Of a DNA stretch of 46,542 nt, positions 5,880-6,722 are shown one piece after another. This DNA is from a virus, in IMG/VR virus record IMGVR_UViG_3300045988_082870, positions 1 to 46,542 of that record. One strand, given 5' to 3'. Every line of letters starts with the position of its first letter. Within the stretch, counting starts at the first letter, position 1. The notes under the pieces were generated by a model that did no database searches, was not told the DNA's origin, and saw nothing but the letters and a program-made list of their open reading frames with translations. The position numbers and the translations under genes were made by a program.

Positions 5880-6722
5880 TTAGCAACCACAGCCACAGCC
5901 GCAGCCGGTATTGCATCCGCAACCATTGTTATTCTGCCAAATCAGTTTAGCAATAGTTTCGTTCTGCTCTTTCTGCGACAGCTTAAATTCAAGGCTCTGT
6001 ATCTTGCGGCTGTCCTCTTCTTTCCAATGAGAGTTAAGTGTGTCGATAATTCTCTGTGTGTTTGCTGTCCCGGCGGCGATAATATCGCACTTATCCTGCT
6101 GTGCCTGGTAACCAACTTGCGCAAAACCACGCTCCAGGCCTGTGTTTGTGCGGTCGAAGCCGGCCTGCATACCGTTGATGATGTCTTTCTGCCCGAGCTG
6201 GTTTTCGTAGCCCATTCGAGTTATGTTGAGATTTGTGTTGCAGCAGCAGTCCTTAATGGCCTGTATAACGTTGCAATCACCTCTTTCAACAGCATTGATA
6301 ACTCGCTCGGCTGAATAGCCAATCTGTCCGCCTATTGTCTGCAAAGTTGCTCTAACATCGCAAAGGGCGTTGTTTAACGTTGTAAAGTCGCATCCCAATG
6401 TCTGCGCAAGGCGTGCGATGTCCGCTCCGTTGCCCTTAATTGCATCCATAAGGAGCTGGCTGTTGTTGTTGTCGCTCAACTGCGTGCGAATGGCCTGTAA
6501 CTGATTCTGCATCTCAACGTTCTGCTGTCCCTGTCCGTAGCCGAAGCCATCGCCGCCCCAACCGCCAAAGCCGCCGTTACGGAAAAGCGCAAACATCAGC
6601 ATATATGCAAATGGGTTGTTCATCCACTGATTAGCACCAAAACCGCCGTTCATCATCATTGCCGGCATCCAATCGTTATTGTTGTCTCTGTCGCAACAGA
6701 TAACCTTTTCAATTTCGCTCAT
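5880..6722 (-). CDS. Unusual Gly/aromatic-rich and Cys-rich protein ending in a (Gly-Cys)n tail
   Basis: 280 aa. The N-terminus reads ICC...NGGFGANQW...NGGFGGWGGDGFGYGQGQQ. The central part is Q/N-rich with spaced Cys (LGCDF, ALCDV, GDCNV, KDCCCNT, DKCDI). The C-terminus is NNNGCGCNTGCGCGCGC. Confidence 0.65.
   Translation of the reverse strand: MSEIEKVICCDRDNNNDWMPAMMMNGGFGANQWMNNPFAYMLMFALFRNGGFGGWGGDGFGYGQGQQNVEMQNQLQAIRTQLSDNNNSQLLMDAIKGNGADIARLAQTLGCDFTTLNNALCDVRATLQTIGGQIGYSAERVINAVERGDCNVIQAIKDCCCNTNLNITRMGYENQLGQKDIINGMQAGFDRTNTGLERGFAQVGYQAQQDKCDIIAAGTANTQRIIDTLNSHWKEEDSRKIQSLEFKLSQKEQNETIAKLIWQNNNGCGCNTGCGCGCGC

Follow-up and report, generated by a model that had tools for sequence, protein, structure and literature searches.

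We found that the 280-aa product of a gene in the window (the whole stretch of 46,542 nucleotides analysed here, from IMG/VR record IMGVR_UViG_3300045988_082870) is, judging from sequence comparison, a real and highly conserved protein of gut phages that falls outside all characterised families. We denote this protein p280. Its gene is a genuine late gene in a Bacteroides siphovirus of the B124-14-like type, and the ORF at 5880..6722 on the minus strand yields exactly the product described in the initial annotation of this DNA, with the start MSEIEKVICC. In database searches, 4249 proteins match p280 at E≤1e-3; the family splits into 981 clusters at an identity threshold of 50% and into over 4000 at 90%, is restricted to phages, has no counterpart in Pfam and consists nearly entirely of sequences from gut viromes. 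Given these matches, together with the N-terminal motif, the hydrophobic peptide and the CCC triplet that are found family-wide, p280 cannot be a chance ORF. As the best explanation of its role, we tentatively propose that p280 forms an abundant accessory late complex that acts on the host envelope and is joined by a cysteine/metal clasp; only slightly less probable is that it is an accessory fibre of the virion.

Comparison of the homologues demonstrates a common plan that consists of an N-terminal [ED]K[IV]YC(C) motif, a hydrophobic peptide, a helical, Q/N-rich body and a lineage-variable tail. The Gly/aromatic region (aa 23-66), the Q/N-rich centre and the C-terminal tail NNNGCGCNTGCGCGCGC that had been reported for this protein are all present in the p280 translation, and its elements map to the DNA as follows:

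5880..6722, minus strand: p280 gene, 280-aa product, member of the PHROG 16490 family
6687..6713, minus strand: N-terminal motif IEKVICCDR, aa 4-12, family consensus [ED]K[IV]YC(C)D
6525..6656, minus strand: hydrophobic peptide with Gly/aromatic flanks, aa 23-66 (MMNGGFGANQWMNNPFAYMLMFALFRNGGFGGWGGDGFGYGQGQ)
5937..6524, minus strand: Q/N-rich all-helical region, aa 67-262, with the conserved Cys set
6240..6248, minus strand: CCC triplet, aa 159-161, invariant in family alignment A1
5883..5924, minus strand: Gly-Cys repeat tail GCGCNTGCGCGCGC, aa 267-280

In alignment A1, E4, K5 and C8 of the N-terminal motif are conserved in at least 90% of the sequences, and P36, F37 and Y39 are invariant within the hydrophobic peptide. 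The cysteines of the p280 body lie in GCD110-112, LCD120-122, GDC148-150, DCCC158-161 and KCD211-213. This set is near-invariant across the bodies of the family and is centred on the CCC triplet, which is present in 67/80 diverse representatives.

The p280 tail contains 6 Cys and is a 6-nt repeat at the codon level (TRF: period 6, 3.3 copies), and the number of units differs among close homologues. About 30% of diverse family representatives have Cys tails, whereas many relatives possess low-complexity tails that are Thr-rich or Tyr/Gly-rich. By motif type, the Gly-Cys tail can be likened to the CxC clusters of metallothioneins. Gly-Cys repeats resemble the cores of microcin B17-type peptides as well as metallothionein CxC runs, so that the tail could mark p280 as a RiPP/TOMM-type precursor, with thiazole formation, or as a metal scavenger of the metallothionein kind. 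We consider this extremely unlikely: at 266 aa, the 'leader' would be long as well as highly conserved, the Pfam, PHROG and record annotations of the neighbours in the window and in a dozen annotated loci showed no gene for a YcaO, cyclodehydratase or radical-SAM protein, the tail is replaced by the Thr-rich or Tyr/Gly-rich versions in many relatives, and it covaries with a partner protein rather than with an enzyme.

The statement that p280 belongs to no recognised family withstood systematic searching. Sequence and profile searches of Pfam, NCBIfam and the PDB produced nothing significant for p280, no fibre, decoration or chaperone family was matched in Pfam, PHROGs, NCBIfam or the PDB, and the sole PHROGs match is phrog_16490 (E 1.2e-15, residues 24-259 against positions 21-223 of the 286-position profile), annotated as 'unknown function'. 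Baculovirus PEP (PF04513) scored 16.3 bits against the Pfam cut-off of 38 and was dismissed, and two weak PADLOC matches to PD-Lambda-4_A (E 1e-4 and 1e-3, 16-18 bits) were treated as helical-repeat noise. Among 150 diverse representatives, the homologues are only stand-alone proteins of 250-350 aa with no domain fusions; the apparent fusion of one of them (P0250) to the C-terminal domain of acyl-CoA dehydrogenase looks like an assembly chimera. A megablast search with 9 kb detected no near-identical phage genomes, and the literature on DUF7841, crAss and Bacteroides spanins, lysis cassettes and virion proteomes yielded nothing on this family. The carriers include B124-14-like siphoviruses and some crAss-like phages, and homologues with 43-45% identity to p280 are encoded by cr7_1, cr124_1 and Dulem virus 42.

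The gene immediately downstream of p280 encodes a protein, p144, that was described at the outset as beta-rich and Cys-containing, and in which we indeed counted 6 Cys:

5426..5860, minus strand: p144 gene, 144-aa beta-rich protein with 6 Cys

The p144 family is characterised by the conserved motifs LCxPxC, GCGC and CxxCG, and its CxPxC and CxxCG motifs are zinc-knuckle-like. The presence of this partner follows the type of p280 tail. A Cys tail is accompanied by p144 directly downstream in 35 dereplicated loci and by a different, CC-containing beta-rich ORF in the p144 slot in 2 loci; conversely, a Thr-rich tail is followed by no Cys-bearing beta-rich gene in 11/11 cases. Tail type and partner gene switch jointly in at least 3 clades of a neighbour-joining tree. 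The crAss-like versions nearest to p280 (cr7_1 and Dulem virus 42) lack both the Gly-Cys tail and p144, and crAss-like cr116_1 encodes a Cys-tailed version together with a p144 homologue. This covariation supports the view that p280 and p144 are a functional pair. The pairing of the p280 CxC tail with the covarying CxC/CxxC motifs of p144 is, by analogy, reminiscent of the zinc clasp of CD4/CD8-Lck and the zinc hook of Rad50, although the p280 tail, with its 6 Cys, is far longer than a single zinc clasp.

The two genes had been described as a self-contained unit. The pair itself is borne out by the covariation, but it is embedded in a larger conserved cassette, p280-(p144)-p161-(DUF7841), which usually adjoins the lysis genes and, in the window, lies between these and the tail-fibre gene:

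4892..5377, minus strand: p161 gene, located after p280 or p144 in 84/88 loci
4384..4887, minus strand: p175 gene, DUF7841 (Pfam PF25223, E 1.5e-23), the last gene of the cassette
3837..4295: holin gene (Phage_holin_4_1, E 2e-4; phrog_20732), downstream of p280
2565..3071: lysozyme gene, downstream of p280
2080..2592: u-spanin-like gene, product p170, the lipobox protein of the window, downstream of p280
6810..7133, plus strand: LuxR/GerE gene (Pfam E 8e-17)
7824..10082: tail fibre gene, upstream of p280

Neither p144 nor p161 matched any family in Pfam, NCBIfam or PDB sequence searches, and there were no PADLOC matches for p144, p161 or p175. The AF2 model of p161 (pLDDT 86) comprises a small beta-barrel and a three-helix C-terminal region, for which Foldseek retrieved only generic Tudor/SH3/KOW-like barrels from the PDB (E>0.06) and only uncharacterised phage proteins from BFVD. 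The DUF7841 gene follows in 59/88 loci; in the window, p175 is immediately followed by the holin gene with its promoter box, and DUF7841 adjoins the holin gene in the cultured phages PD482P1 and BF503P2 as well as in phages that lack p280.

The Pfam and PHROG annotation agrees with the placement of p280 between the tail fibre and the lysis cassette, beside a plus-strand LuxR gene. A conserved trio of the LuxR, p280 and p144 genes, for which lack of joint conservation had been named beforehand as refuting evidence, did not hold up: the LuxR gene is present in only 2/88 loci. On the same count, we reject the control of p280 and p144 by this regulator.

The view of p280 and p144 as a unit running from promoter to terminator fared better. 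The relevant elements are:

6814..6821, minus strand: Bacteroides-type -7 box TATCTTTG (TAnnTTTG), a pattern match 92 nt upstream of the p280 ATG
6803..6810, plus strand: mirrored copy of the -7 box, facing the LuxR gene
5391..5417, minus strand: GC-rich 10-bp stem-loop with a U-tract in the p144/p161 spacer, stem AAGACCCUCA/UGAGGGUCUU

Both the box and the hairpin (5393..5417) are not only present but conserved among relatives. TAnnTTTG is found upstream of p280 homologues in 19/80 regions, compared to 7% at random positions and 0-3% before p161, p175 and holin. The hairpin upstream of p161 has a dG of -16.2 kcal/mol and a z-score of -4.6, and a strong stem-loop directly upstream of p161 is detectable in 51/53 distinct intergenic sequences, with hairpin sequences that differ among lineages; a generic terminator scanner missed the one at 5393..5417 because its T-run is short. 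This hairpin is likely to be a terminator, an attenuator or an RNA-stability element.

The structural module of the window phage is fully syntenic with that of phage B124-14, in which the cassette is absent. The module is therefore accessory and dispensable for building this virion type. The suggested moron-like architecture is supported: the module has its own box and hairpin and is missing in B124-14. The lysogenic-conversion type of moron is unlikely because no integrase or repressor was detected among the ORFs scanned. The module resembles lambda-type morons (lom, bor) in being an accessory insertion in the late region with a promoter-like box and a terminator-like hairpin, absent from a close relative; unlike lom and bor, it consists of several genes, is conserved across about 1000 protein clusters and shows no sign of prophage expression.

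Although abundant in human-gut phages, the p280 family is unannotated or misleadingly named. In GenBank, the crAss-like homologues are called 'spike protein/glycoprotein' or 'outer capsid protein/viral fiber', and the homologues are otherwise unannotated in public records. These names are remote-similarity labels that stem from a weak, borderline resemblance to the pre-HR1/HR1 segment of coronavirus S2. Indeed, the only PDB profile matches of p280 below E=0.4 are to this segment (E 0.0096-0.4). The S2 segment scores 21.4 bits, compared to a maximum of 10.7 for 2000 shuffled sequences and 3.8 for the reversed sequence, and the similarity is set by the order of residues, not by composition; the statistics (best E about 0.01; hhalign probability 40%, P 3e-4) are borderline. 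The p280 hydrophobic peptide aligns with the S2 motif 'PFA..YR.NG.G'. S2 (pre-HR1 'IPFAMQMAYRFNGIG' and HR1) and p280 share a Gly/aromatic flank, PFA, a hydrophobic run, R-x-N-G-x-G and then an N/Q-rich heptad helix. Unlike S2, p280 lacks a signal peptide, an HR2/TM anchor, a receptor-binding S1 and a cleavage site, and its Cys-rich tail follows a helix rather than a transmembrane domain.

A fusion-peptide-like feature is present in p280, with Gly/aromatic flanks around the core PFAYMLMFALF and heptad periodicity after it, at aa 67-135. Convergence on an N/Q-lined coiled coil would be sufficient to account for the resemblance to S2. It is highly improbable that the family is truly related to class I fusion cores in evolution and mechanism, that is, a soluble, spring-loaded fusogen or membrane disruptor capped or triggered via the p144 cysteine/metal clasp; if this were the case, p280 would represent a new class of phage envelope-disruption proteins widespread in human-gut Bacteroidales phages and, possibly, a link between phage proteins and the nidovirus spike fusion machinery.

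The predicted membrane properties of p280 restrict the possible modes of action. Its best 19-mer has a dGapp of +6.95 (about +7 kcal/mol), compared to -1.24 for the holin and -0.61 for the TMD of the u-spanin, and on this estimate we rejected a constitutive single-pass membrane protein. The hydrophobic peptide is TM-grade in 5-15% of the family representatives, where its core is flanked by Gly and Trp. No signal peptide, lipobox or TM-grade segment was predicted in any protein of the cassette (p280, p144, p161 and p175), so the only routes of these proteins to the envelope would be from the cytoplasm or by way of the lesions made by the holin. A holin function of p280 was rejected, given that there is no genuine TMD and that a separate holin-like gene is present at 3837..4295. 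The cassette is spanin-like in that its late genes lie beside those for holin and endolysin, and Rz/Rz1 spanins are helical or coiled-coil proteins that fuse membranes to act on the envelope and have cysteines important for function. However, p280 is not a spanin, either two-component or of the T1 gp11 type: it lacks an N-terminal TMD, no partner contains a lipobox, and a separate u-spanin-like gene is located at 2080..2592.

The same features weigh on the idea that p280 is a superinfection-exclusion protein or another protective late membrane protein that blocks competing phages or the adsorption of progeny to debris. The accessory status of the cassette, its location beside receptor-binding genes, as is the case for cor and llp in T1 and T5, the hydrophobic peptide and the co-occurrence of a 4-TM protein in a few loci would all fit. 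Nevertheless, we regard this role as very unlikely, considering that p280 has no lipobox, signal peptide or TM-grade anchor and that its size, three soluble partners and probable high expression are unlike those of known Sie proteins.

Under the envelope-active complex that we tentatively favour, p280 would oligomerise via its helical body, and its CxC-repeat tail would be clasped to the CxC/zinc-knuckle-like motifs of p144 through shared metal ions or disulfides. p280 and p144 would be produced in excess of the products of downstream genes because the hairpin would attenuate transcription. The Gly-flanked hydrophobic peptide, with an HR1-like helix behind it, could be a latent, fusion-peptide-like membrane-active element. 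The complex would act on the envelope at the end of infection, either gaining access to the periplasm and outer membrane via the holin lesion or docking on the inner membrane, and would aid or tune lysis and release beside the canonical set of holin, endolysin and u-spanin. In favour of this scenario are the size and conservation of the family, the tail/partner covariation, the Cys motifs of p144, the hairpin, the promoter enrichment, the accessory status, the S2-like resemblance, the TM-grade core of some family members and the linkage to lysis genes, which for DUF7841 and the holin extends to phages without p280. The cassette usually adjoins holin and endolysin genes; in many loci, p161, p175, holin and endolysin are spaced by 2-6 nt. 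A lysis gene is found within 3 kb of the cassette in 61/97 loci, with five endolysin types and with the cassette on either side of the lysis genes, although such adjacency counts are not independent because many loci come from related phages. In some lineages (L005/6, L021-31), the cassette is not near recognisable lysis genes. Several observations count against the envelope role: the phage already encodes a full lysis set, with no step obviously missing, the hydrophobic segment of p280 is not predicted to insert alone, a location 3' of the tail-fibre genes would suit a virion appendage just as well, and structural proteins typically combine high expression with coiled-coil character.

These last points lead to the alternative of an accessory virion appendage, a real possibility in which p280 would make up a long helical (coiled-coil) fibre, whisker or decoration and be anchored by its N-terminal region, with p144 as a distal tip domain clasped to the Cys tail, the Thr-tailed versions as bare fibres, and p161 and perhaps DUF7841 as assembly factors or adaptors. 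In lineages that are not related, the cassette comes straight after the final tail-fibre gene: a homologue of fib752 lies upstream of p280 in 33/88 loci, a DGR-diversified tail protein is encoded upstream in cr7_1 and vir215, and PD482P1 has the same layout, after tail-fibre genes. B124-14, which lacks the cassette, has one giant fibre of 2006 aa instead, and the fibre region of the window phage is split and modular. The heptads at aa 67-135 with the all-helical prediction, the promoter-to-hairpin unit suggestive of high expression like that of structural genes, the shaft/tip-like covariation of tail and p144, and the lack of signal peptides in the cassette also point to an appendage. Not everything fits, however. 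p280 resembles no family of fibres, decoration proteins or chaperones in Pfam, PHROGs and the PDB, a strongly Cys-rich and Q/N-rich composition is atypical of phage fibres, and a hydrophobic peptide that becomes TM-grade in some members would be odd in a surface fibre. In the AF2 monomer model, which is unusable as a structure (pLDDT 38; 33-sequence alignment), the N-terminal half of p280 consists of short helices interrupted by conserved Gly turns rather than one shaft. In addition, a 4-TM protein gene and the divergent LuxR gene lie between the cassette and the fibre genes in the window, and in L062-65 the cassette follows the spanin gene, not the fibre genes.

An intracellular role away from the envelope appears unlikely, if less so than exclusion. 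Under this scenario, p280 would be a helical bundle that binds a metal or redox cofactor, with C121, CCC159-161 and C212 as a candidate Zn or Fe-S site, and, together with p144 and p161, would function as a regulator or as a host-takeover, anti-defence or cytoplasmic holin-timing factor, the hydrophobic peptide being merely the core of the oligomer. The five to six conserved Cys at helix ends of p280, the zinc-knuckle-like CxPxC and CxxCG motifs of p144, the missing export signals, the accessory nature of the cassette and the tight coupling of p161 and p175 to the holin gene are all consistent with it. Against this, the module is located at the end of the structural/lysis operon and not among the early genes, the Gly/Trp-flanked hydrophobic core is conserved and TM-grade in some members, the only match to a defence or anti-defence family is the weak one to PD-Lambda-4_A, and the Thr-rich and Tyr/Gly-rich tails look structural or adhesive, not regulatory.

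Should the envelope role prove true, the p280 complex would add a new accessory step to Gram-negative lysis; should the appendage prove true, phages of strict anaerobes would have a new kind of virion appendage, clasped by metal or disulfides. Either outcome would bring a new component into the biology of dominant human-gut phages. The system is now defined by four elements: the putatively Cys-linked pair of tail and partner, which the covariation supports, an architecture for expression that is conserved, the wider cassette where fibre and lysis genes meet, and cultured carriers.

Among cultured phages, Bacteroides phage C3_41T2LP (host B. uniformis; genes of interest C341T2LP_00036 and 00035) is a carrier of p280 homologues, whereas Parabacteroides phage PD482P1 (genes of interest 00057-00054) provides an architectural analogue, a 226-aa protein with a p280-like architecture and position that includes IYADRDRCC, a Gly-rich hydrophobic segment, DCCC and an Ala-rich tail; its HMM score of 15 bits is not significant, and we do not count it as a family member. 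Eight loci of the p280 family were found in bacterial genomes, mostly phage contigs binned into MAGs, plus one Phocaeicola coprophilus isolate.

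Downstream of its structural genes, this siphovirus-like genome of roughly 46.5 kb, almost all of whose genes are encoded on the minus strand, carries a cassette of four small genes at the junction of the fibre and lysis modules. The structural module comprises genes for the large terminase, portal, head and tail, for a tape measure of 1028 aa and for the fibres, these last ending at 7824; all of it is syntenic with its counterpart in B124-14, a cultured Bacteroides phage (phmmer E values as low as 1e-255). None of the scanned ORFs was identified as an integrase gene. The fibre genes are followed, in the 3' direction, by a 4-TM protein, a divergent LuxR/GerE gene, the cassette (p280, p144, p161, p175) and, in order, a holin-like gene, an inserted homing endonuclease, a lysozyme and a 170-aa protein:

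7117..7485, 4-TM protein
6810..7133, plus strand, LuxR/GerE gene, divergent
6814..6821, minus strand, -7 box TATCTTTG, fitting the Bacteroides TAnnTTTG -7 consensus
5880..6722, minus strand, p280, 280-aa product
5426..5860, minus strand, p144, 144 aa, beta-rich, six Cys
5393..5417, stem-loop between p144 and the next ORF, 10-bp GC-rich stem followed by U-rich sequence
4892..5377, minus strand, p161
4384..4887, minus strand, p175, Pfam DUF7841
3837..4295, holin-like gene
2971..3726, minus strand, HNH/NUMOD homing endonuclease, inserted between the holin and lysozyme genes
2565..3071, lysozyme
2080..2592, minus strand, 170-aa protein directly after the lysozyme, with an N-terminal signal and lipobox (LLLGC) and a C-terminal TMD

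In B124-14, only two small ORFs, of 122 and 163 aa, separate the tail fibre from the endolysin. No homologues of p280, p144, p161 or p175 are present in that phage, so the cassette is accessory for this kind of phage. Its GC content (43-51% across 4400..6800) compares with 29-39% in the p122, LuxR and fibre-tip flank and 33-42% in the lysis genes, a mosaic that suggests modular exchange around the cassette. The LuxR gene and the 4-TM protein accompany p280 elsewhere only in two of the compared loci, L011 and L028. The 752-aa distal fibre protein (7824..10082, minus strand) has homologues with Pfam DUF4886 (in locus L003), and B124-14 seems to combine the equivalent functions in a single fibre of 2006 aa.

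The p280 product, which the initial annotation had transcribed exactly, is extreme in composition, with 34 Gly, 31 Asn, 25 Gln and 15 Cys, the latter at positions 9, 10, 111, 121, 150, 159-161 and 212, plus six within the last 13 residues. Members of its family carry an N-terminal [ED]K[IV]YC(C)D motif, followed by a hydrophobic core of 11-16 residues with Gly and aromatic residues on either side (NNPFAYMLMFALFRNGGFGGWGG in the window; GGNGAWWIIIIIVLFAFGGWGG is an example from distant members) and a Q/N-rich, all-helical body with heptad periodicity at residues 67-135. The Cys set is near-invariant; the CCC triplet is invariant in the family alignment A1 and was found in 67 of 80 diverse representatives. 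The tail is variable and of low complexity, and comes in three types: a Gly-Cys repeat (at least three Cys; 23/80 representatives), a Thr/Ala-rich type, and a Tyr/Gly-rich type ending in an aromatic residue. The best 19-mer of the window p280 has a dGapp of +7 kcal/mol on a Hessa-type scale, compared with -1.2 for the holin and -0.6 for the spanin TMD, and only 5-15% of the representatives contain a TM-grade segment. In the window protein, the hydrophobic segment thus has the look of a peptide that is membrane-active or forms an oligomer core, and not of a permanent membrane anchor.

The family is already catalogued but uncharacterised and partly mislabelled. The window p280 belongs to phrog_16490 ('unknown function', E 1.2e-15) and has no match in Pfam or NCBIfam. 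It has 4249 relatives at E<=1e-3 in a 90%-clustered protein collection and matches 981 clusters of a 50%-clustered library; all relatives stand alone, at about 250-350 aa, and no domain fusion that would be informative was found. Among GenBank phages, the family is present in some but not all of the crAss-like Suoliviridae and Steigviridae, in Dulem viruses and in the cultured Bacteroides phage C3_41T2LP, and is nearly absent from one-genome-per-species bacterial data (8 loci, mostly phage contigs in MAG bins). Such a spread in dominant gut phages merits follow-up. In the crAss-like cr7_1 (locus L001), the p280 and p161 homologues (6001..6804 and 6862..7365) contain several in-frame TAG codons; this genome is stop-codon-recoded, and standard-code ORF callers therefore truncate both. 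Homologues are also encoded by two viruses, Caudoviricetes sp. vir215 (L089) and vir335, whose assigned hosts belong to the archaeal order Methanomassiliicoccales, so that either the host assignment or the restriction of the family to phages of outer-membrane bacteria is in doubt and needs checking. In vir215, as in cr7_1, the p280 homologue directly follows a tail protein, a reverse transcriptase and a small ORF in a DGR-like arrangement.

GenBank entries for the family are hypothetical or named 'spike protein/glycoprotein' or 'outer capsid protein/viral fiber', and these names reflect its resemblance to coronavirus spike S2. A profile built from 33 members and searched against all PDB sequences recovers, below E=0.4, only S2 chains and HR1 peptides (E 0.0096-0.4), aligning the family segment 'nnPFAyllflalfRngGfG' and the next helices with 'slPFAqsiyyRmnGiG' and HR1. 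The family HMM scores the real S2 segment at 21.4 bits, the best of 2000 composition-preserving shuffles at 10.7 and the reversed sequence at 3.8. A profile-profile comparison gives 40% probability (P 3e-4, 113 columns) against an S2 alignment that is in part approximate. Given these borderline statistics, and because p280, unlike class I fusion proteins, has no signal peptide, HR2 or TM anchor, we treat the match as a resemblance, not as membership of that class. The same helical stretch (residues 68-157) gives a weak PADLOC match to PD-Lambda-4_A (18 bits, E 1e-4), the only kind of match in that database (16-18 bits) and probably helical-repeat noise.

The tail type of p280 covaries with the neighbouring gene. 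In dereplicated loci with a covered downstream region, every Cys-tailed p280 is followed by a Cys-bearing beta-rich ORF, which is p144 in 35; in L007 and L090, the slot holds a different CC-containing beta-rich protein. Thr-tailed p280 is directly followed by p161 in 11 of 11 loci, and this partnerless state occurs in at least three separate clades of an un-bootstrapped NJ tree of the p280 core. The p144 homologues retain LCxPxC, GCGC and CxxCG, that is, CxC and zinc-knuckle-like motifs. We consider p280 and p144 established as a pair linked via the Cys tail; on the simplest reading, the tail would be the docking site for p144 through Cys chemistry, by shared metal or disulfides. A RiPP precursor or metallothionein reading of the tail is very improbable, given that its covariation is with a partner protein and not with an enzyme. 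A cytoplasmic metal/redox or regulatory role for these proteins is unlikely.

The pair also has a conserved expression architecture, which we consider established and which bears out the proposal in the initial annotation of a promoter-to-terminator unit. The strict -7 motif lies upstream of p280 in 19/80 cases, against 7% at random positions and 0-3% for p161, p175 and holin. The stem-loop in the window (dG -16.2 kcal/mol, z-score -4.6 versus shuffles) has strong, GC-rich counterparts immediately 5' of p161 in 51 of 53 distinct spacers, with stems of 10-18 bp, often a T-run and a median dG of -24.5 kcal/mol; the hairpin is present whether p144 or p280 precedes it, and its sequence varies by lineage. 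This architecture implies that p280, and p144 where present, would be produced in larger amounts than the products of the genes that follow the hairpin. Two mirrored, divergent TATCTTTG boxes lie within 6803..6821, one directed towards p280 and the other towards LuxR; the latter overlaps the called GTG start of LuxR, so the true start is probably the internal ATG at 6837.

We also consider it established that p280 is a genuine, conserved and apparently abundant late accessory gene, and that the pair, together with p161 and DUF7841, makes up a wider cassette where the fibre and lysis genes meet. Across 88 related loci drawn from phage records, metagenomes and IMG/VR, p280 is followed by p161 in 84, p144 in 67 and DUF7841 in 59, most frequently in the order p280, p144, p161, p175, holin. 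In 61/97 loci, which span five endolysin types, p280 has a recognisable lysis gene no more than 3 kb away; the cassette stands before the holin or after the spanin (L062-65), and p161, p175, holin and endolysin are often only a few nucleotides apart. DUF7841 is immediately 5' of the holin in the cultured Bacteroides phage BF503P2 (L092), which has no detectable p280 or p161, and in Parabacteroides phage PD482P1 (L091/L102), and could itself belong to the lysis module. The cassette also comes, in most lineages, directly after the last of the fibre genes or after a tail gene diversified by a DGR, and position alone therefore cannot separate a fibre from a lysis function. The predicted fold of p161 (pLDDT 86) is a small Tudor/SH3/KOW-like beta-barrel with three helices, for which structure searches recovered only uncharacterised phage proteins. 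No relatives of p144, p161 or p175 were found among PDB sequences, and none of the three has a signal peptide or TM segment.

Our leading but tentative model is that the cassette encodes an envelope-active accessory complex acting at the lysis stage. The linkage to holin and endolysin genes persists in different lineages and with different endolysin types, some relatives have a TM-grade version of the fusion-peptide-like segment, which precedes an HR1-like helix, and the absence of export signals would fit proteins that reach the envelope from the cytoplasmic side or via lesions made by the holin. Against this, the canonical set of holin, endolysin and u-spanin is already complete. An accessory virion fibre with a clasped tip, an equally tentative alternative of only slightly lower probability, fits the evidence almost as well, with the position after fibre genes, the heptads, high expression and a shaft/tip-like covariation of tail and partner in its favour; the cassette would then be a variation within an already known type. 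An exclusion-type role is improbable. None of the tested defining features of spanins, holins, class I fusion proteins, fibre families or RiPP precursors was clearly found and, as far as sequence and profile comparison of p280 goes, under which a divergent known fold is possible, the cassette fits no characterised system.

In PD482P1, the place of p280, ahead of p161, DUF7841, holin and endolysin, is taken by a 226-aa protein (43422..44102 of that phage's record). Its score against the family HMM is not significant, but its architecture is p280-like (IYADRDRCC, a Gly-rich hydrophobic segment, DCCC and an Ala-rich tail), and it is possibly a very distant family member in a cultured phage.

Elsewhere in the window, the 170-aa protein, for which no PHROG or NCBIfam match was found, has the topology of a unimolecular (T1 gp11-type) spanin. 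The lysozyme ORF has been called from an upstream GTG with which the HNH/NUMOD endonuclease overlaps, and another HNH domain occurs in a fusion with an exonuclease (43639..45225). The large terminase (25256..27787, minus strand, 843 aa) has an extra N-terminal P-loop region matching DnaC-like and primase PHROGs; the B124-14 terminase is similar in size (2.5 kb, annotated 32240..34741).
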